From positions 1,657,436 to 1,689,435 of the forward strand of contig NC_003902.1 in assembly GCF_000007145.1 (NCBI RefSeq): a stretch of DNA of 32,000 nucleotides, given 5' to 3'. A program made the position numbers and the translations under genes. The stretch is from Xanthomonas campestris pv. campestris str. ATCC 33913. Lineage in GTDB: Bacteria > Pseudomonadota > Gammaproteobacteria > Xanthomonadales > Xanthomonadaceae. The notes under the pieces are model-generated. The model searched no databases. It was given only the letters and a program-made list of their open reading frames with translations, and was not told the DNA's origin. Numbering within the stretch: the first letter of the stretch is position 1; the number at the start of each line of letters is the position of its first letter. Shown in pieces: positions 9,951 to 32,000 of this stretch.

Positions 9951-10024
9951 CGCGGGCGGCGCTTCACCGGGTGTGCGCGCCACGCTGCCTACAGTGGGGC
10001 GCTGGTTCCCACGGAGCGTTCCCC

Positions 10025-10579
10025 ATGAGCAAGTACACCATTGCGGTATTGGTCGGCAGCCTGCGCGCGCAGTCCTACAACCGCCAGCTGGCCCAGGCGC
10101 TGGCGCAGCTGGCCGGCGACAAGGCCACGTTCGAGTTCCTGGAGATCGGCGACCTGCCGCTGTACAACCAGGACCGCGACAGCGATTACCCGGCCGAAGG
10201 CACCCGCCTCAAGCAGCAATTACGCGCGGCCGATGCGGTGCTGTTCGTGACCCCGGAATACAACCGCTCGATCCCCGGCGTGCTCAAGAACGCCATCGAC
10301 ACCGCCTCGCGGCCATATGGCGACAGCGCCTTCGCCGGCAAGCCGGCCGCCATCGCGGGGATCTCGGTCGGCGCGATCGGCACCGCGCTGGCGCAGCAGC
10401 ATCTACGTGGCGTGCTGGCCTACCTGGACATGCACGTGCTCGGCCAGCCGGAGATCTATCTGCAATACAAGGATGGCTTGTTCGGCGCCGACGGCCAGAT
10501 TGCCGATGCCGACAGCCGCAAGTTCCTGCAGGGATTTGTCGACAGCTTCCTGGCCTGGATCGCACACCACACACGCTGA
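10025..10579 (+). CDS. NADPH-dependent FMN reductase (ChrR/YieF-like flavodoxin-fold oxidoreductase)
   Basis: ATG at 10025 preceded by ACGGAG. MSKYTIAVLVGSLRAQSYNRQLA... and LFVTPEYNRSIPGVLKNAID are typical FMN_red family motifs. The track ORF from 9521 is an upstream over-extension into asnB. Confidence 0.85.
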   Translation: MSKYTIAVLVGSLRAQSYNRQLAQALAQLAGDKATFEFLEIGDLPLYNQDRDSDYPAEGTRLKQQLRAADAVLFVTPEYNRSIPGVLKNAIDTASRPYGDSAFAGKPAAIAGISVGAIGTALAQQHLRGVLAYLDMHVLGQPEIYLQYKDGLFGADGQIADADSRKFLQGFVDSFLAWIAHHTR

Positions 10580-12488: not shown

Positions 12489-13907
12489 ATGTCTTACGCC
12501 ATCGTCTGGTTCCGTCGCGATCTGCGTCTGGAGGACAACCCCGCCTTGCGCGCCGCGCTCGATGCCGGGCACGACCCGATTCCGCTTTACATCGATGCAC
12601 CGCACGAAGAAGGCCAATGGGCGCCGGGCGCGGCATCGCGTGCGTGGCGGCATCGCAGTCTCGCCGCACTGGATGCCTCCTTGCGCGCGCGCGGCAGCGC
12701 GTTGCTGATTCGTCAGGGCGACAGCGCGCAGGTGCTGGACGCGGTGATCGCGCAGACCGAAGCGGTGGCGGTGTACTGGAACCGCAAATACGAGCCGGCC
12801 ACCCAGCCACGCGATGCGCAGATCAAGCGCAGCCTGCGTGAGCGTGGGCTGGAGGTGCAAAGCTGCAACGCCGCGCTGTTATTCGAACCGTGGACCCTGG
12901 CCACCCAGCAGGGCAGGCCGTACAAGGTGTTTACGCCGTTCTGGCGAAATGCACTCACTCAGCTGCGCTTGCCCGATGCCATGCCCGCGCCGCGCAGCCT
13001 GCCGCCGTTGCCCGCGTCGCTGGACGGTGTGCACGTCGATGCGCTGAACCTGCTGCCCACGCCGGCATGGGATCAGGGCTTCTGGGAACACTGGCAGCCG
13101 GGCGAAGCCGGTGCGCACGAGATGCTGGAGATCTTTGTCGACGGCGCGCTGTCGGGTTACCGCGAAAACCGCGACCGTCCCGACCGCGTTGGCACCTCGC
13201 AGTTGTCGCCGCATCTGCATTTTGGCGAGATCGCGCCCTGGCGCATTGCCAGCACCTTGGAGGCGCAGCGCAGCGCGCGCAATGGCGCGGACATCGACGG
13301 CTATATTCGCCAGTTGGGATGGCGCGATTTTGCGTACCACCTGCTGCATCACTTCCCGGACACCACCACGCAAAACCTCAACCCGCGCTTTGCCGGCTTC
13401 GACTGGGCCACGGTGGATCCGGTCACGCTGGACGCATGGCAGCGCGGGCGCACCGGCATCCCGATCGTCGATGCGGGGCTGCGGCAGCTGTGGCATACCG
13501 GCTGGATGCACAACCGCGTGCGCATGATCGTGGCGAGCCTGTTGTGCAAGCATCTGCGCGTGCATTGGCTGGAGGGCGCGCGCTGGTTCTGGGACACCTT
13601 GGTGGATGCGGACCTGGCCAACAACACGATGGGCTGGCAGTGGGTGGCCGGCACTGGCGCCGATGCGGCGCCGTATTTCCGCGTGTTCAATCCGGTGACG
13701 CAGGCCGAGAAATTCGACCCGCAAGCCACCTACATCACGCGCTGGATTCCCGAGCTGGCGGCATTGCCGGTGAAAGAGCGCTTTGCACCGTGGCTGCATC
13801 CGTTATCGCTGGCGCGGCTGGCACCGACCTATCCGCGCGCGCCGATCATCGGCCTGGCCGAAGGGCGCGATGCCGCGTTGGCGGCCTACGCAGGCACGCG
13901 CGGCTAA
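12489..13907 (+). CDS. phrB: deoxyribodipyrimidine photolyase (class I CPD photolyase/cryptochrome family)
   Basis: MSYAIVWFRRDLRLEDNPAL N-terminus. FAD-binding region TSQLSPHLHFGEI, GWRDF, TG.P.VDA..RQL...GWMHNR.RM..AS and D.DLA.N..GWQW..G.G.DA.PYFR.FNP. Start is the ATG at 12489; the track start at 12345 is over-extended. Confidence 0.9.
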   Translation: MSYAIVWFRRDLRLEDNPALRAALDAGHDPIPLYIDAPHEEGQWAPGAASRAWRHRSLAALDASLRARGSALLIRQGDSAQVLDAVIAQTEAVAVYWNRKYEPATQPRDAQIKRSLRERGLEVQSCNAALLFEPWTLATQQGRPYKVFTPFWRNALTQLRLPDAMPAPRSLPPLPASLDGVHVDALNLLPTPAWDQGFWEHWQPGEAGAHEMLEIFVDGALSGYRENRDRPDRVGTSQLSPHLHFGEIAPWRIASTLEAQRSARNGADIDGYIRQLGWRDFAYHLLHHFPDTTTQNLNPRFAGFDWATVDPVTLDAWQRGRTGIPIVDAGLRQLWHTGWMHNRVRMIVASLLCKHLRVHWLEGARWFWDTLVDADLANNTMGWQWVAGTGADAAPYFRVFNPVTQAEKFDPQATYITRWIPELAALPVKERFAPWLHPLSLARLAPTYPRAPIIGLAEGRDAALAAYAGTRG

Positions 13908-14040
13908 GCGAAAACGTTTTCCTGAATGAACCGCTAGCCGAACGCTGGCGGCGGGCGATTTCATCATGTGCCAGTCGCGTTGCGCTGTTTATCCTCGCGG
14001 CACGATTCAGCGCCGGATGGTCCGGCCAAAGGAGAACACC

Positions 14041-14766
14041 ATGTCCCCAGCAGCCAGCAAGAGCCTTGCCGTGGCCTTGGCCAGCGCCATCGCGCTGTCC
14101 GCCTGCGCCACCGGCGGCTCGTACGTGCAGCGCGACCAGTACGGCGACCAGACCCAACAACAGAACCGCACCGGCCGCAATGCGCTGATCGGTACCGCGA
14201 TCGGTGTGGCCGCCGGCCTGCTCACCGGCGACAGCGCCACCGAACGCCGTCAGCACGCGATGATCGGTGCCGGTATCGGCGCATTGAGTGGTGCGGCCGT
14301 GGGCCAGTACCAGGATCGTCAGGAACGCGCGTTGCGCGAGCGCACCGCCAACACCGGCATCGACGTGCAGCGCCAGGGCGACAACATCACCTTGAACCTG
14401 CCCGACGGCATCACCTTCGACTTCGGCAAGTCTGCGTTGAAGCCGCAGTTCTACACCGCGCTCAACGGCGTGGCCTCGACACTGCGTGAGTACAACCAGA
14501 CCATGGTGGAAGTGGTGGGGCATACCGATAGCGTCGGTAGCGATGCGGTGAACCAGCGCCTGTCCGAAGAGCGTGCCAACGCGGTGGCCCAGTACCTGAC
14601 CGCACAGGGCGTGCAGCGCGAACGCATGGAAACCATGGGCGCCGGCAAGCGCTACCCGATCGCCGACAACAGCACCGACGCCGGCCGTGCACAGAACCGC
14701 CGCGTCGAAATCCGCCTGATTCCGCTACGCCAGGAAGGCGCCGCCAGCACTACCGGCATGCGCTGA
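14041..14766 (+). CDS. OmpA-family peptidoglycan-binding lipoprotein
   Basis: AAGGAG 6 nt upstream of the ATG at 14041. Lipobox ...AIALSAC. A Gly-zipper segment is followed by the OmpA C-like domain (F.FGKSALKP, VVGHTDSVGS...N..LSE.RA.AV..YL...G, NRRVEI). Confidence 0.85.
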   Translation: MSPAASKSLAVALASAIALSACATGGSYVQRDQYGDQTQQQNRTGRNALIGTAIGVAAGLLTGDSATERRQHAMIGAGIGALSGAAVGQYQDRQERALRERTANTGIDVQRQGDNITLNLPDGITFDFGKSALKPQFYTALNGVASTLREYNQTMVEVVGHTDSVGSDAVNQRLSEERANAVAQYLTAQGVQRERMETMGAGKRYPIADNSTDAGRAQNRRVEIRLIPLRQEGAASTTGMR

Positions 14767-16916: not shown

Positions 16917-17681
16917 ATGGTCCAATCCGAGACGGTCGTCCTGGGTGGCGCGGGCAACGTCGGTGCCGGCATCGTCGCCGCGCTGCTCGAGGCGCAGCTG
17001 CCGGTGCTGGTGGTCGGCCGCGATGCTGCCAAGCTGGCCGCGTTGCGCGCCCGCCATGGCGACAGCCCCTTGCTGGAGACGGTGCAGGGCTCGGTGGCCG
17101 ATGACGCCGCCGCGCAGGCACTGGCTGCCGAGCTGGCGCAACGTCCACGCCCGCTGGCGGCGGTGGTTGCGAGCCTGGGCAGCCCGCTCAAGGCCGGCCG
17201 CCTGCTGGACCGCCCGGTCAGCGCCTTGCGCCGCCGGCTGGACCGCGACCTGCTTCCGCACCTGGCGGCCGCCCGGCATCTGATGCCGCTACTGGCCGAG
17301 GCCGATGGCGGCGGCCGTTACCTGTTGCTCGGCAGCCCGTGTGCACTGCGTGCGTGGTCGGCGCACGGCGATATCTCCATCGCCGCGGCGGCCACCCGCA
17401 TGCTGGCGCAGGTGCTGCACGAAGAAGCCAAGCCGTTGGGCGTGCGCGTGCACCTGCTGTCGGTTGAGCAGCCGGTGTGCACGCCCAGCCGTGCCAAGGA
17501 GGCCTGCCCGGAATGGATCCGGGCCGTGGACGTCGGCCGCGCCGCCGTCTCGTTGATCGCCGGGCCTGGCCAGCCCGGACACGCCATCGTGACCGTCAGC
17601 CGTCGCCCGCAGACCGCACCGTCGGCTGGCCGCCTGGCCGGTCTGCAGTTTCCCCTTCCCGCCCGAGAGATTTCCCCATGA
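16917..17681 (+). CDS. atypical SDR-like (Rossmann-fold) protein, first gene of the efflux operon (SmeU1-like position)
   Basis: First in-frame ATG at 16917 gives MVQSETVVLGGAGNVGAGIVAALL (a Gly-rich dinucleotide loop next to the N-terminus). The stop TGA (17679-17681) overlaps the ATG of the next gene (ATGA). No YxxxK was found by eye. Confidence 0.7.
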   Translation: MVQSETVVLGGAGNVGAGIVAALLEAQLPVLVVGRDAAKLAALRARHGDSPLLETVQGSVADDAAAQALAAELAQRPRPLAAVVASLGSPLKAGRLLDRPVSALRRRLDRDLLPHLAAARHLMPLLAEADGGGRYLLLGSPCALRAWSAHGDISIAAAATRMLAQVLHEEAKPLGVRVHLLSVEQPVCTPSRAKEACPEWIRAVDVGRAAVSLIAGPGQPGHAIVTVSRRPQTAPSAGRLAGLQFPLPAREISP

Positions 17682-18868
17682 CCCCGAACGCCACCCCGTT
17701 CCGTTTTCCCTTGCGTACTGTATTGACGGGCGCTGTCCTCGCGGTCGTTTTGGCCGGTTGCGGCAGCAAGGCCGCCGAGACCGGCGCGCCGCCACCGCCC
17801 AGCGTCAGTGTCGCCCCGGTGCTGCTGAAAGAGATCAGCCAGTGGGATGAATTCAGCGGCCGCATCGAGCCGGTGGAAAGCGTGGAACTACGCCCGCGCG
17901 TGTCCGGCTATATCGACAAGGTCAATTACGCCGAAGGCACCGAAGTGAAGAAGGGCGATGTGCTCTTCAGCATCGACGACCGCAGCTACCGCGCCGAGTT
18001 TGCCCGCGCCAATGCCGCGCTGGTGCGTGCCCGCACCCAGGCCAGCCTGGCCCGCAGCGAAGCGACGCGTGCGCGCAAGCTGTCCGAGCAGCAGGCCATC
18101 TCCACCGAAACCTGGGAACAACGCCGCGCCGCGGCCGACCAGGCCGATGCCGAAGTGCTGGCCGCACAGGCCGCCGTGGACACCGCCAAGCTCAACATGG
18201 ACTGGACACGCGTGCGTGCCCCGATCGACGGCCGCGCCGGGCGCGCGATGGTTACCGCCGGCAACCTGGTCACCGCCGGCGACAGCGCCAGCGTGCTGAC
18301 CACGCTGGTGTCGCTGGACAAGGTGTTCGTGTACTTCGATGCCGATGAAGGCACCTTCCTGCGCTACTCGCAGATGAGCCGCAACGGCGAGCGTCCGGAC
18401 GAACGTGGCGGCGAGTTGCCGGTGCGCATCGGCCTGGTCGGCGAGCAGGGCTTCCCGCACAGCGGGCGCGTGGATTTCCTCGACAACCAGGTCACCCGCA
18501 GCACCGGCACCATCCGCGTGCGTGCCGTGCTCGACAACGCCGATCGGCAGTTCACGCCCGGCCTGTATGCGCATGTGCAGTTGCTCGGCAGCGGCCAGTT
18601 CAAGGCCATGCTGGTCGATGAAAAGGCCGTGCTGACCGACCAGGACCGCAAGTACGTGTACGTGGTCGACAAGGATGGCAAGGCGCAGCGACGCGATGTG
18701 GAGCTTGGCCGCACTGCCGATGGTCTGCGCATCGTGCGCAAGGGGTTGGCGGCCGGCGACCGCGTGGTGGTCGATGGTGTGCAGAAGATTTTCATGCCCG
18801 GCATGCCGGTCGATGCCAAGGCCGTGGCGATGGTGCCCACCTCGGACAAGCGCACCGCATCCAAATAA
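17678..18868 (+). CDS. RND efflux periplasmic adaptor (membrane fusion protein), MexE/SmeV-like lipoprotein
   Basis: ATG at 17678. Lipobox VLAGC. Biotinyl-lipoyl/hairpin motifs RPRVSGYI..V.Y.EG..VKKGDVLF.ID.R.Y and T.VRAPIDGR.G. Confidence 0.9.
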   Translation: MTPNATPFRFPLRTVLTGAVLAVVLAGCGSKAAETGAPPPPSVSVAPVLLKEISQWDEFSGRIEPVESVELRPRVSGYIDKVNYAEGTEVKKGDVLFSIDDRSYRAEFARANAALVRARTQASLARSEATRARKLSEQQAISTETWEQRRAAADQADAEVLAAQAAVDTAKLNMDWTRVRAPIDGRAGRAMVTAGNLVTAGDSASVLTTLVSLDKVFVYFDADEGTFLRYSQMSRNGERPDERGGELPVRIGLVGEQGFPHSGRVDFLDNQVTRSTGTIRVRAVLDNADRQFTPGLYAHVQLLGSGQFKAMLVDEKAVLTDQDRKYVYVVDKDGKAQRRDVELGRTADGLRIVRKGLAAGDRVVVDGVQKIFMPGMPVDAKAVAMVPTSDKRTASK

Positions 18869-28595: not shown

Positions 28596-28622
28596 GCCAC
28601 TGCCACTGCCACTGCCACTGCC
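28596..28622. repeat. hexanucleotide microsatellite (GCCACT)x4 plus a partial copy
   Basis: Four perfect copies plus GCC, counted by hand. They generate the artefactual QWQWQWQW ORF on the minus strand. Confidence 0.9.
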
Positions 28623-28785
28623 CGTGCCGGCGCCGGCGCTTCGCGCTACCGCCCGCTAACGAGGCGGCACTGTAAACACTCGTGAGCAAGCAGGGCGGCG
28701 CTGCACAAAGCCCAGGTACCGGGACCTTCTTGCTGACCGGCGTGACCTGCACGGCAGCACTCTCCAAACGCCCAACACCGCACAT

Positions 28786-28824
28786 GAAAAAGGCCAGTCG
28801 TCTCTCTCGAGAACGCCTGGCCTT
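28786..28824 (-). terminator. Rho-independent terminator on the minus strand (orphan terminator of the displaced RNA-gene 3' end)
   Basis: The minus strand reads AAGGCCAGGCGTTCTCGAGAGAGACGACTGGCCTTTTTCA. The outer stem AAGGCCAG/CTGGCCTT has additional inner pairing and is followed by a T-run. It lies 25 nt downstream (minus sense) of the ...CCACCTCCACCA fragment. Confidence 0.6.
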
Positions 28825-28849
28825 AGTCGGTCGTCTTAGGACCGTTGTT

Positions 28850-28866
28850 TGGTGGAGGTGGGGTCT
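28850..28866 (-). other. 3'-terminal fragment of a tmRNA (ssrA) or tRNA-Ala-type gene: probable island att repeat
   Basis: The minus strand reads AGACCCCACCTCCACCA: acceptor strand CACCTCC, discriminator A, then CCA. This pairs with 5'-GGGGGTG including a G3:U70 pair, the alanine identity element used by tmRNA. No T-loop or remaining gene body lies upstream, so it is a fragment only. Confidence 0.55.
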
Positions 28867-29301
28867 ACCAAAAAATAACGATAAAATACTGATATTAAAG
28901 ATAATTTAATTTTCTTCTGTAGGAATGCCCCCAAATATGCCCCTGGAAAAATATAACGATGAATCGACATTTGGCTGGCTCACGCTGGTCTAAACGCTCT
29001 GAGTTGCGCAATTGGCGCCTCGCAATCCTGATCTCGCTTCCATCCAGGATGTCCGAGCGCACGACACAGGAGGATGGGAGGTTCAGGAGTCTAGCCATCT
29101 AGCCTTGTGGTCAGACATACTTCCCCAACGCTTGGGGAAGCTGCGGGATTGATCGTAGCTGGGCGTTGATAAGGGCCTAAAAGTGAAAGGACTCGTCATT
29201 GACGAACCGTGGATCTCATTGATCCTGAGTGGCCAGAAGACCTGGGAGATGCGCTCCCGCGCAACGTCCATTCGTGGTCGCATCGCGTTAATCAAAAAGG
29301 G

Positions 29302-29310
29302 ATCCGGAAC
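29302..29310. repeat. target-site duplication, left copy (ATCCGGAAC)
   Basis: Identical 9-mer directly abutting both IS ends (29302-29310 and 30661-30669). Confidence 0.85.
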
Positions 29311-30660
29311 CTGAGGTTTCCCCACATTTCCTCCTGGCAAATCAATCACTTGCGACGTAATTGCCTGGAAGAAAGTGCGCGCATGGCGCAATCTTCAAGG
29401 TGACTAAGCCAGAGAAGGTTGACGACCATGCGCGCCAGCGAAGTATTGCAGAAGTGCCTGCCCAACTCACTGTCCGGGATGCATGCGTTGCGCGAACGCG
29501 CGTTGCTGCATGCGGTCGAGGCGTTGTTGCACGGACGCAGGCTGACACTGATGGACATCGCACGTTCGTGGCCGAGCGCACTGCGGGTGCGCGCGCCGCT
29601 CAAGGCAGTTGATCGCCTGTTGAGTAATCGCAATTTGCAGGTCGAGCGATCAGTGATCGACCACGAGATGGCGCACTGGCTGCTGCGCGGCGCGCAGCCG
29701 GTAATCGTCATCGACTGGAGCGATCTGAAGCCAGACAAATCGTGGTGTCTGCTGCGCGCAGCGGTGCCGGTGGGCGGCCGCACGCTTACCTTGCTGGACA
29801 TGGTAGTGCCAGGAAAGCAGCAGGGATCGCCTGGTGCAGAAAGACGCTTCTTGCAACAACTGAGGGCACTGGTTCCGGACGATGTTCGCCCGATCCTGGT
29901 CACTGACGCCGGCTTCCGGACACCGTGGTTCCGCGCTGTATCGGCCATGGGCTGGTGTTGGGTTGGGCGACTGCGCGGGCGCACGCAAGTCAAGCCGCAG
30001 GACGTGCGGGATGAAGCAGATCAGTGGATCGACAGCCGGAAACTGCATGTGTTGGCGTCCAATCGTGCATGCGAGTTACCGCCGATGCAGGCCAATCGCA
30101 GCGATCCACTCGATTGCAGGTTGGTGATTTACGCCAAGGCACGGCAAGGGCGCAAACAGTGCAATCGCCGCTCACCCGCCAAAGTCTCGCGTGCGTCATC
30201 GAGTCTGAAGGCCGCAGCGCGCGAGCGCGAGCCTTGGCTCATCGTTGCATCCCCGCAGCTGCAGGCGCCCAGCGCAAAGCAGTTGGTCAATGTGTACGCA
30301 CGACGGATGCAGATCGAGCTTGCATTTCGCGATCTGAAATCACATCGCTACGGCCAGGCGCTGGAAGACAGTTTGACCCGACGCGGCGAGCGACTGCAGA
30401 TCCTGCTGCTGATCAATACGTTGGCTGCATTCGCCAGCTGGTTGGCGGGGCTGGGATGCGAAGCGACCGGTATCGCCCAGTGGCTGTCTCCTCGCAACAG
30501 CACACGCAAGCTTTACTCCACGCTACGCATCGGCCGAGAAGCGCTGGTCAGGCAGTGGCCGATGGAACCCGTCTCACGGTGGATAGGGCGCTTGCGCGCA
30601 CTGCCTGCGGCAGTGCGCGAGCAGATGACGCTTACGGTGTAAAACGTGGGGATACCTTAG
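29311..30660 (+). mobile_element. IS4-family, IS10-like insertion sequence (1350 bp), apparently intact
   Basis: Terminal inverted repeats CTGAGGTTTCCCCACATTT (left) and CTAAGGTATCCCCACGTTT (right, reverse complement) match at 16 of 19 positions and resemble the IS10 ends (CTGAGAGATCCCC...). A single 404-aa transposase ORF fills the element, which is flanked by a 9-bp TSD as for IS10. Confidence 0.9.
29428..30642 (+). CDS. IS4-family (IS10-like) DDE transposase
   Basis: ATG at 29428 after GAGAAGG. Colinear with the IS10 transposase as recalled: LTL..I.R..P......LK..DRLL.N..L..ER, VIVIDWSDL, VTDAGFRTPWF, GW.W.GR.RG and QLVN.Y..RMQIE..FRDLKS..YG (YREK region). Confidence 0.9.
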   Translation: MRASEVLQKCLPNSLSGMHALRERALLHAVEALLHGRRLTLMDIARSWPSALRVRAPLKAVDRLLSNRNLQVERSVIDHEMAHWLLRGAQPVIVIDWSDLKPDKSWCLLRAAVPVGGRTLTLLDMVVPGKQQGSPGAERRFLQQLRALVPDDVRPILVTDAGFRTPWFRAVSAMGWCWVGRLRGRTQVKPQDVRDEADQWIDSRKLHVLASNRACELPPMQANRSDPLDCRLVIYAKARQGRKQCNRRSPAKVSRASSSLKAAAREREPWLIVASPQLQAPSAKQLVNVYARRMQIELAFRDLKSHRYGQALEDSLTRRGERLQILLLINTLAAFASWLAGLGCEATGIAQWLSPRNSTRKLYSTLRIGREALVRQWPMEPVSRWIGRLRALPAAVREQMTLTV

Positions 30661-30669
30661 ATCCGGAAC
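30661..30669. repeat. target-site duplication, right copy (ATCCGGAAC)
   Basis: See the left copy. The sequences are identical. Confidence 0.85.
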
Positions 30670-31277
30670 CATCGTCGGCGTTGCTGATTTGGTTGACTGC
30701 ATCGGCCCCTTCGACGCCACTGCCTGGCGCGCACACGCCGACAAACACTGTATTCCCATAGAGCGCGAAGAGCTGGCCATGCGCTGGAACGTCGCTTGGG
30801 CGCTTAGTAGGGCGACTCCACTGGCGCGATCGGTCAGCTACGACCATCCTTCCGGTGCTGTTACGTGGGTCAATCTCGACGATGAGGTTGTGGCCCAACT
30901 CCAGCTTGGTGCCAGCCATCTCAAGATTCCTCAGAAGCTGCCGTTAACCCTAGGAACGAACCTCCAGCCTAAGAATCTGCCGGAGCAGCGATTCACACTT
31001 GAAGATGCGGGCGCGGTGCCTATTGGCGTATTGATACCGGTCGCCAGTGATGGCACGTGGTTCTCGCCCGATTTGAAGAGAGGGCGCGGGTACACCATCT
31101 GCGCCAAGGGTGAGGAGATTGTGGTGGAGAGCTATCTAGAAGCTCTCTCGCAACTTCGCCTGATTCCTAAGCCGCGCTGGCGGAGACCAAATGCCGGTGG
31201 CAACTGGGGAATCATGACTGGGGTGAAGTGGGAAGACGCCAGTAAGTTGACAAGCTAATACAGGGGATTTAGAAGAA

Positions 31278-32000
31278 ATGAACGTGCTTTGGATCGCGGC
31301 GACTGGCGATTGGCTACATGCTCTGATTGCGTCGATCATCGCAGTCCTTTTTCTCTGTTTTCTCTTCTTTGTCTTGTTCCGGGCGAGCGCGCTTCTGGTG
31401 TCATTGAAGCGACTCGGTAATGCTGTTCGGCTGCTGACAGGGAAATCGCCCCCCCTCGTCAAGCGGGAACTCAGCAAGCTCTTTGCCAACAGTCGCCTCC
31501 AGCCGAACTGGGCCGAGTACGAGGACACGTTGCATGAGCAGACCGCCAATCAAGGTATTGATCGAGAAATCGTAGCCGTTCGTGCAACCGTCCCCGCAGA
31601 ATCGTTCTTCAATGCGGAGCTGGTGGTTGATAGCACGCTGCACACAGAGTTCTTCAAGCATCTTCCTGGGATTTTTACCGGGCTCGGAATCATCGCGACC
31701 TTCAGTGGGCTCATTGCAGGCTTACAAAGCTTCGACGTCAAGGCGGTAGAGCCGGACGCGCTGAAAGCAAGTCTCGGCGGTCTTTTCGGCCACGTTGGCA
31801 GTGCGTTTCTTCTTTCTGCGGTTGCTATTGGTCTCGCGATGATCTGCACGATCGTCGAAAAAATCCTCTATGCAGCAAACGTGCATGCGATCACGTCGAT
31901 CGCGCTGGCGCTGGATGGTCTTTTCAAGTCTGGTGTCGGCGAGGAATACCTTTCCAAATTGGTGAGGTCTTCTGAAGATGGTGCTGTACAGACAAAGCAG
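31278..32000 (+). CDS. MotA/TolQ/ExbB-type proton-channel protein, ZorA-like; 5' part only (runs off the right edge)
   Basis: ATG at 31278, 241 codons with no stop to the window end (hand-translated, absent from the track). TM1 is LHALIASIIAVLFLCFLFFVLF, followed by a ~90-aa soluble insert. Then FFKHLPGIFTGLGIIATFSGLIAGL and GGLFGHVGSAFLLSAVAIGLAMICTIVEKIL (MotA/ExbB channel signature), then LFKSGVGEEYLSKLVRSSEDG and onward. Confidence 0.7.
   Translation, partial: MNVLWIAATGDWLHALIASIIAVLFLCFLFFVLFRASALLVSLKRLGNAVRLLTGKSPPLVKRELSKLFANSRLQPNWAEYEDTLHEQTANQGIDREIVAVRATVPAESFFNAELVVDSTLHTEFFKHLPGIFTGLGIIATFSGLIAGLQSFDVKAVEPDALKASLGGLFGHVGSAFLLSAVAIGLAMICTIVEKILYAANVHAITSIALALDGLFKSGVGEEYLSKLVRSSEDGAVQTKQ

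Follow-up and report, generated by a model that had tools for sequence, protein, structure and literature searches.

Near the right end of a 32,000-nt stretch of the chromosome of Xanthomonas campestris pv. campestris (Xcc) ATCC 33913 (NC_003902.1, positions 1,657,436 to 1,689,435; this whole stretch is called the window), an insertion sequence (IS) splits a gene for a 238-residue protein, in which an ASCH domain is joined through a linker to a small C-terminal domain (C-dom). This two-domain gene, designated here ASCH-C, co-resides and is co-inherited with one branch of the type I Zorya defence system, encoded by zorA, zorB, zorC and zorD (zorABCD). In our opinion, ASCH-C may tentatively be considered (probability about 0.45, judging from sequences) a clade-specific defence companion, not a core Zorya subunit, that would add a layer of nucleic-acid or modification sensing. 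The ASCH reader, the IS4 insertion and type I Zorya are all of already known kinds. The two-domain architecture, its clade-specific attachment to Zorya I and the C-dom family with its GmrSD, UDG and exonuclease associations appear to be new. Full-text literature searches brought up no paper in which ASCH or PUA domains are linked to Zorya, nor one on Zorya in X. campestris, which agrees with a remark in the first-pass annotation of the window that an ASCH domain with an unfamiliar partner domain is not known as a described Zorya component.

Linkage with type I Zorya

Scanning of one genome per species gave 20 loci with the two-domain ASCH-C gene, and in 13 of these 20 species-level genomes it adjoins Zorya I, being directly upstream of zorA in 12 (gaps from -1 to 141 nt) and directly after zorD in one. 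Further Zorya-linked loci were found in Microbulbifer agarilyticus, a metagenomic lineage and Thalassotalea (L086, L087/88, L089). In Thalassotalea, ASCH-C starts at the first base past the zorD stop codon; loci with the gene downstream of zorD are L014 and L089. The adjacency of the gene to a ZorA-like gene, first noticed in the window, is therefore repeated by intact homologues in other genomes, and it is kept across Zorya lineages whose ZorA is 24–27% identical to that of Xcc. Pairwise identity of ASCH-C correlates with that of ZorA (r 0.89) and of ZorD (r 0.90) over 13 loci, the pairs not being phylogenetically independent; on sequence grounds such a correlation shows co-inheritance, not function.

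The opposite census was made from the Zorya side and comprised 67 metagenomic ZorA loci, each preceded by 800 nt or more of sequence. Its ZorA seed, an alignment of five sequences of the Xanthomonadales type, samples only ZorA relatives bearing its two motifs. ASCH-C was found within about 70 nt upstream of zorA in 10 of the 67 loci and was absent upstream of zorA in 57, although with the 4-kb flanks used copies after zorD would be missed. Carriage of the gene amounts to 9/13 among the closest ZorA relatives versus 1/54 among more distant ones. Co-occurrence with zorABCD does not hold in both directions (13/20 forward, 10/67 reverse), and contexts without Zorya exist.

The operon downstream of ASCH-C is of the standard composition, ZorA-ZorB-ZorC (EH_Signature)-ZorD (SNF2). 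The PADLOC and NCBIfam models of the canonical system are, however, four-gene models, and ASCH-C is an extra gene present in some clades only; compared with the models of known Zorya components, it matched no PADLOC family at E ≤ 1 and no NCBIfam family. The type I systems studied from E. coli, P. aeruginosa and Shewanella have been described as consisting of ZorABCD alone (PMC11946911, PMC11890865).

Several small genes were noticed around these operons. A 216-aa HEPN gene (RiboL-PSP-like, Pfam E 3.9e-6, slightly under the gathering score) recurs beside the ASCH-C/Zorya I unit and may be another companion of these islands. At type I Zorya loci without ASCH-C, small same-strand open reading frames (ORFs) of 95–165 aa with no Pfam match abut or overlap the zorA start; a general variable slot upstream of zorA is an unproven idea. 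ORFs of 66–67 aa overlapping the ASCH-C start in L086 and L087 are conserved in close relatives only and are probably not genes.

Reconstruction of the interrupted gene

Joining 29183–29310 to 30670–31258 gives an ORF of 717 nt, i.e., 238 codons and TAA, with no internal stops. The uninterrupted frame predicted in the first-pass annotation upon removal of the IS and one copy of the target duplication is thereby confirmed. The insertion point is in codon 43 of the 238-codon gene. In the IS-carrying allele the 5' ORF (29183–29314) encodes 43 aa, with a GTG start and 42 intact codons before the interruption, and the ORF listing agrees with the earlier reading of a truncation at a TGA (29312–29314). 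The same GTG start at 29183 is used in the NCBI annotation of the intact allele P0262, as established by an exact-sequence look-up.

Exactly the reconstructed 238-aa protein exists in a public collection as P0262 (X. campestris pv. campestris), in at least 54 contigs, and databases name it solely "ASCH domain-containing protein". The window without the IS and one duplication copy differs at 0 of 1342 nt from the empty site in the complete Xcc genomes CP156004.1, CP075146.1 and CP066945.1 (L170–L172). The reconstructed junction, expected to be found uninterrupted in related strains, is so in these three genomes, and the proposed knock-out of the gene in the window strain holds, the IS being present here and absent at the same site there. 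The agreement of the reconstruction with the intact alleles is far beyond chance.

The interrupting element shows everything expected of the IS4 family, namely an IS4-type DDE transposase, terminal inverted repeats, a short target duplication and a demonstrable empty site. Its product is a 407-aa IS4-family DDE transposase (Pfam DDE_Tnp_1, E 1.4e-21; NCBIfam NF033591 (IS4), E 4.8e-107), and the inverted repeats, CTGAGGTTTCCCCACATTT and CTAAGGTATCCCCACGTTT, located at 29311–29329 and 30642–30660, are imperfect. The IS is 81.8% identical in nucleotides to ISXac1 of X. citri plasmids over the full length, and only one copy occurs within the window.

The ASCH domain

The Pfam ASCH family (PF04266) matched residues 6–67 (score 34.6 bits, cut-off 21.2; E 3.3e-8), and phmmer aligned residues 3–113 with TTHA0113 (1wk2/2dp9; E 2.4e-13). 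An AlphaFold2 model of the full protein had a mean predicted local distance difference test score (pLDDT) of 87.9. When it was compared with the PDB by Foldseek, the top 17 matches were all of ASCH fold (E 1.4e-9 to 2e-5), including TTHA0113 (2dp9, E 1.4e-9), the TRIP4 ASCH-dsDNA complex (8yfj, E 1.1e-6) and ZmASCH (5gus, E about 1e-5). The ASCH domain suggested earlier for residues 1 to ~115 is thus well founded, with a score above the gathering cut-off and fold matches, and residues 1–125 constitute a true ASCH domain; the structure search proposed at that time gave the ASCH fold for the N-terminal part and no match for the C-terminal domain.

The signature motif of the ASCH family is GxKxxExR. 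In ASCH-C it reads G17-Q-K19-T-W-E22-M-R24, and 48 full-length homologues all have K19, E22 and R24, with G17 conserved in at least 90% of them; several more aromatic and histidine residues are invariant too. The ASCH fold was originally put forward as an RNA-binding one, and its members include ribonucleases and acylcytidine amidohydrolases. TTHA0113 has the same GxKxxExR region and is 33% identical by Foldseek, but this T. thermophilus protein of about 120 aa is a single domain without linker, C-dom or known defence context. The ASCH domains of TRIP4/ASC-1 (8yfj, 9kyl) and ZmASCH (5guq, 5gus) have the same PUA-like fold (Foldseek E 1e-6 to 1e-5); they differ in being 15–18% identical and in having no C-dom, TRIP4 being a eukaryotic transcription and ribosome-quality-control factor and ZmASCH a stand-alone bacterial protein of Zymomonas. 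Since the TRIP4 ASCH domain was crystallized with dsDNA, the ASCH fold is able to read duplex DNA.

Homologues of the ASCH half occur on mobile elements as well. Stand-alone ASCH proteins corresponding to residues 2–112 were found in 21 Vibrio phages with 51–54% identity (H39–H53, e.g., Vibrio phage K459, 5013–5339). The V. cholerae plasmid pSA7G1 (L085, 5974–6333) carries a homologue with 45.6% identity, flanked by a Dam methyltransferase on one side and by a second methyltransferase with a restriction endonuclease on the other. The ASCH half without C-dom is accordingly also plasmid-borne, adjoining DNA methyltransferases.

The C-terminal domain and its relatives

The linker is a gap-rich, unconserved block in the alignment of the 48 homologues. 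The C-dom following it is W/R-rich, has a median isoelectric point of 9.5 and contains the invariant motifs DG..F, KGxE and WRRPNxxGNWG; modelled alone with AlphaFold2, it reached a pLDDT of 92.6 and a predicted template modelling score of 0.79. No match of the C-dom was obtained in Pfam (E up to 10), NCBIfam, PADLOC, PHROGs or PDB sequences, and Foldseek found no match of its fold in the PDB (best E 0.41) or BFVD (best E 0.34). The previous statement that residues ~120–238 resemble nothing recognizable therefore holds for both sequence libraries and folds in the databases searched. Profile matches of the C-dom to designed alphaRep proteins in the PDB (E 1e-5) were rejected as repeat artefacts of many sub-threshold stretches. 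A degenerate GIY-YIG, HNH (beta-beta-alpha-Me) or PD-(D/E)xK mini-nuclease was considered and ruled out: no His is invariant, Phe is invariant where the GIY motif would be, the Tyr at the YIG-like position varies, the strands follow one another in a different order, and no nuclease was given by Foldseek.

An exhaustive search of 1.84 billion cluster representatives (clusters at 50% identity) with a hidden Markov model (HMM) of the C-dom gave 582 clusters at E ≤ 1e-3, and the family, as far as sequences tell, is small but real. A word-index search with the 82-aa C-dom alone gave 0 matches, which reflects the sensitivity limit of that method, as the HMM search found 582 clusters. Among 50,697 phage records, none contained the C-dom. 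Domain architectures were counted in the 141 best new cluster representatives from the 150 matches listed (Table 1). The UDG assignment rests on a single Pfam match, and the N-terminal domains of the UDG-like and 329-aa-family proteins matched no PDB sequences.

Stand-alone C-dom genes (76–90 aa) lie directly 3' of GmrSD-family genes in all five loci examined. The GmrSD-family protein of L043, the sole one scanned against PADLOC, matches HEC-05 (E 1.3e-189), and HEC-05 may have in the C-dom gene an unrecognized small partner. In Rhodobacterales, a 315–345-aa protein consisting of an uncharacterized N-terminus and the C-dom is encoded by a gene overlapping by 4 nt that of a 538–547-aa DEDDh exonuclease (PADLOC DEDDh, E 4e-20; PDC-S48, E 7.5e-18). 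Exonuclease and C-dom are fused as one protein in L062, L065 and L075. Judging from these sequences, the pair looks like an uncharacterized candidate defence pair. In a Gallionella metagenome-assembled genome (L020, 4496–5549) ASCH and C-dom are encoded by two neighbouring ORFs, that of the C-dom having a ribbon-helix-helix (RHH)-like tail; such a tail also follows the C-dom in P0198 and P0232, the RHH call being made by sequence inspection only.

Every identifiable partner of the C-dom, that is GmrSD/HEC-05, DEDDh exonuclease, UDG and ASCH, is predicted to act on DNA bases or ends. The C-dom thus joins ASCH, GmrSD/HEC-05, UDG-like and DEDDh-exonuclease proteins in one candidate functional network. 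From its invariant acidic, basic, aromatic and Asn residues it may be speculated that a small-ligand or modified-base pocket is likelier than a DNA-backbone binder, and the RHH-like tail points in the same direction.

Other contexts and loss of the gene

In three Marinobacter loci (L015, L017, L084), ASCH-C follows druE of Druantia type III (PADLOC DruE3, E 0); in two loci the genes are 15 nt apart, and in the third they are separated by an IS3 element. One of these Druantia III-linked copies is located on the conjugative plasmid pMAQU02 of M. nauticus. In M. denitrificans (L013), the gene follows hsdR-hsdM-hsdS of a type I restriction-modification (R-M) system. No Zorya is present near the Druantia III and type I R-M loci of Marinobacter. 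ASCH-C is a defence-island gene whose preference for Zorya I is strong and not exclusive.

The gene was inactivated independently at least three times with zorABCD intact, namely in Xcc 8004, in Nitrincola tapanii (L016, 9971–10690), where there is a single in-frame stop at the position of invariant W86, and in Pseudoxanthomonas spadix (L023, ~9990–10180), where a C-dom remnant with an internal stop lies upstream of zorA. It follows that Zorya does not depend on ASCH-C.

Possible functions

According to PMC12191111, type IV restriction enzymes sense modifications through domains of the PUA superfamily, ASCH among them, and on this basis the ASCH pocket of ASCH-C is inferred to read nucleic acid. 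The base that it would read, and perhaps also process, would belong to invading nucleic acid, most likely to modified phage DNA. The C-dom would serve as a portable tether or ligand-binding module, also used by GmrSD-like (HEC-05), UDG-like and GIY-YIG/DEDDh-exonuclease defence proteins. Transcribed together with zorABCD or, in Marinobacter, with Druantia III or type I R-M, ASCH-C would add a sensing layer to DNA-degrading systems and so counter phages that escape those systems by DNA hypermodification. In Xcc 8004 this layer would be lost, with zorABCD intact and 1.36 kb of IS separating the operon from its native upstream region.

The resemblance to type IV modification-dependent enzymes (EVE/SRA/YTH/ASCH) consists in a PUA-like reader located in defence islands and in C-dom relatives adjoining GmrSD-family type IV enzymes. 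In those enzymes, however, the reader is fused to a recognizable nuclease or paired with McrBC-type motors, whereas in ASCH-C the partner is a 75-residue domain without nuclease signature or fold match. The PUA-superfamily sensor domain of the type IV class is thus present, and a linked nuclease effector (HNH, PD-(D/E)xK, GIY-YIG or PLD) was not found in the C-dom by Pfam, PADLOC or PDB folds. A complementary pairing of BREX with BrxU (GmrSD) on pEFER was reportedly described by Picton et al. in 2021. It is similar in concept only, as a modification-dependent element beside a system that modified phages escape, and differs in that BrxU is a full nuclease with demonstrated activity and ASCH-C has no nuclease domain.

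Some points weigh against a companion that senses modified nucleic acid. Shared host phylogeny and co-transfer alone can yield correlated divergence, and the three inactivations could equally mean that ASCH-C and Zorya are functionally unrelated. Other ASCH proteins act on RNA or N4-acylcytosines, and the nearest ASCH structures are those of TTHA0113 and of TRIP4, the latter bound to unmodified dsDNA. The RHH-like DNA-binding tail on some C-dom proteins, a sequence-level observation, would argue for more than a simple DNA tether.

A further reading, which we regard as possible and rather doubtful, is a five-gene system in one Zorya I clade (Xanthomonadales/Rhodanobacteraceae together with a marine gammaproteobacterial branch). 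Here the first gene, ASCH-C, would recognize modified or foreign nucleic acid, and the 75-residue C-dom would be a hitherto undescribed, portable defence adaptor binding one common ligand, recruited by GmrSD-like, UDG-like and exonuclease proteins and Druantia III loci.

It is rather unlikely that ASCH-C is an autonomous single-gene defence or island cargo that hitch-hikes beside Zorya, Druantia and R-M without functional coupling. The gene does sit beside at least three unrelated systems and may precede or follow the Zorya operon, it is lacking in most type I Zorya loci, it is repeatedly lost while zorABCD persists, and the UDG-like and exonuclease C-dom fusions resemble self-contained enzymes. 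Yet ASCH-C has no recognizable effector or nuclease domain, its same-strand spacing is tight (-4 to ~55 nt in most loci), and linkage to Zorya I across ZorA lineages 24–27% identical is more than loose island co-residence usually gives.

The first-pass annotation had suggested that the gene may be a novel sensor or accessory subunit of Zorya. The linkage to zorA behind this proposal stands; the status of a dedicated subunit or sensor is not supported, since the gene is missing from 57 of the 67 metagenomic loci, varies in position, occurs in Marinobacter without Zorya and has decayed three times with zorABCD intact. That a fifth subunit of a type I Zorya subtype docks on ZorAB or ZorCD is improbable, despite the Zorya I neighbour in 13/20 genomes (12 upstream of zorA), the presence beside 9/13 of the closest ZorA relatives, a 19-nt gap to zorA without predicted terminator and the divergence correlated with ZorA and ZorD. 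Association with Druantia III or type I R-M without Zorya, the variable position (L014, L089), the dead copies in Xcc 8004, Nitrincola and Pseudoxanthomonas beside intact zorABCD, the published type I systems of ZorABCD only (PMC11946911, PMC11890865) and the sharing of the C-dom with non-Zorya proteins all speak against it.

By analogy with BrxR/CapW, a transcriptional or post-transcriptional regulator of the adjoining defence operon might be imagined and is very unlikely. Many partner systems, a mostly first-gene position and the RHH-like DNA-binding tail on some C-dom proteins would fit it, and published WYL-domain regulators show the same many-systems pattern (PMC9122601). However, ASCH-C itself has no HTH, WYL or RHH domain, and in L013, L014, L015 and L089 it stands at the end of the upstream operon, not in a divergent or leading position; Pfam gave no matches in ASCH-C to the winged HTH and WYL domains characteristic of BrxR/CapW, the fold being ASCH plus C-dom. 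A housekeeping protein of RNA metabolism that is an incidental neighbour of Zorya is hardly credible: the RNA-related history and enzymes of the ASCH family and the presence of ZmASCH among the fold matches favour it, but the GC of the gene is of the island type, its occurrence varies between strains and between species, nearly every locus examined has defence genes next to it, and in M. nauticus it is carried by a conjugative plasmid.

Discrimination of phage from host DNA by Zorya is thought to rest mainly on where the ZorAB motor is triggered. If ASCH-C is a sensing companion, a nucleic-acid reader on one branch of Zorya I would point to an additional level at which the nucleic acid as such, DNA or RNA, is discriminated, and its location beside Druantia III and type I R-M would carry this idea to other systems. 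For the phage-defence field this would be surprising and testable, tempered by the apparent dispensability of ASCH-C for Zorya retention.

The locus and its island

The coordinates of the features are collected in Table 1.

Table 1. Features of the ASCH-C locus in the window, related loci elsewhere (locus handles given) and architectures of C-dom proteins
Feature	Position	Strand	Remarks
Upstream low-GC leader of the acquired island	28700..29182	+	GC 51.8%; identical in intact-gene strains
5' piece of ASCH-C gene	29183..29310	+	GTG start, codons 1–42 plus 2 nt; runs into IS, stops at TGA 29312–29314
Left 9-bp target-site duplication ATCCGGAAC	29302..29310	.	Single copy at empty site of L170–L172
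ISXac1-like IS4-family IS, 1350 bp	29311..30660	+	Transposase ORF 29419–30642, same orientation as split gene
Right 9-bp target-site duplication ATCCGGAAC	30661..30669	.	Direct repeat of left copy
Rest of ASCH domain	30670..30916	+	Residues ~43–125; pLDDT 85–98 over residues 1–125
Linker	30917..31027	+	Residues ~126–162; variable, low-complexity, disordered; pLDDT <50 at residues 131–155
C-dom and TAA	31028..31258	+	Residues 163–238; basic beta-beta-beta-alpha-beta-beta module
Intergenic spacer, 19 nt	31259..31277	+	Shine-Dalgarno-like AGGGGA 31262–31267; no terminator predicted
zorA, 5' part, 241 codons	31278..32000	+	Type I Zorya; extends past window end
HEPN gene loci	L089 3881–4531; L019 594–1238; L012 18012–18599; L078 17852–18499		Position varies; 44–48% identity between loci
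Small ORFs before zorA	L114 3423–3920; L129 3329–3943; L168 3609–3962		
C-dom/GmrSD loci	L043 8037–10234; L049 8016–10273; L071 8187–10237; L031 and L026 8103–10249		
Rhodobacterales pair loci	L050 9305–11907		Similar in L025, L044, L046, L048, L068, L070
Stand-alone C-dom			~41 among matches listed
~215–300 residues ahead of C-dom			~41 among matches listed; 329-aa family size, N-terminal region uncharacterized
ASCH-sized N-terminal region and C-dom			~31 among matches listed; 25 with GxKxxExR
C-dom with Pfam UDG match			1 among matches listed
GIY-YIG-like, DEDDh exonuclease and C-dom fusion			1 among matches listed
C-dom N-terminal			5 among matches listed; partners include RHH-like tails, proteins of 589 and 1249 aa

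The stop codon TAA (31256–31258) of ASCH-C is separated from the zorA ATG at 31278 by 19 nt, as had been counted before; the spacing is operon-like and the following gene is a genuine type I zorA. Its part within the window matches PADLOC ZorA1 (PDLC00599) with E 4.7e-138 and NCBIfam type I ZorA1 with E 1.5e-57, and the full-length protein gives E 0 in PADLOC. In the genome of Xcc 8004 (CP000050.1), which has the IS-disrupted allele, intact zorA(629)-zorB(238)-zorC(539)-zorD(1065) are followed by two transposase genes, so that the locus has the full type I Zorya content of zorA, zorB, zorC (EH signature) and zorD (SNF2 helicase). No terminator-like sites were predicted on the + strand between the IS and zorA. 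The native promoter of the ASCH-C/zorABCD unit probably lies in the region 28700–29182; a sigma-70 consensus scan gave no promoter site upstream of the ASCH-C gene or at the IS end.

The GC content is 66.5% in the core genome (1–28600), 57.5% in the ASCH-C gene and 53–56% in zorABCD, and the GC content at third codon positions is 0.84, 0.65 and 0.60–0.63, respectively. Sharing the low GC of zorABCD, the ASCH-C gene is part of the same acquired island as the Zorya operon and arrived with it. The boundary is sharp, from ~66% to ~50% at 28600–29200 of the window, which places the left island edge near 28.7 kb. The right edge in the genome is marked by IS5-like and IS3 transposase genes (L083, 18469–20681). 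No tRNA genes were found in the window. In the window strain the gene is no longer functional, and expression of zorABCD may be disturbed, a point of modest practical importance.

In another Xcc strain (CP066945.1; L172, 12347–18717) ASCH-C is intact, and zorC and zorD are each split by an IS, the splitting elements carrying a DDE_Tnp_1 gene (13420–14400) and an rve-type gene (17311–18455). In Xcc, ISs seem to enter the Zorya island repeatedly, and the genes affected differ from strain to strain. These natural alleles, with the gene intact (CP156004.1), the gene disrupted by an IS (8004) and zorC/zorD disrupted by ISs (CP066945.1), allow a direct test.

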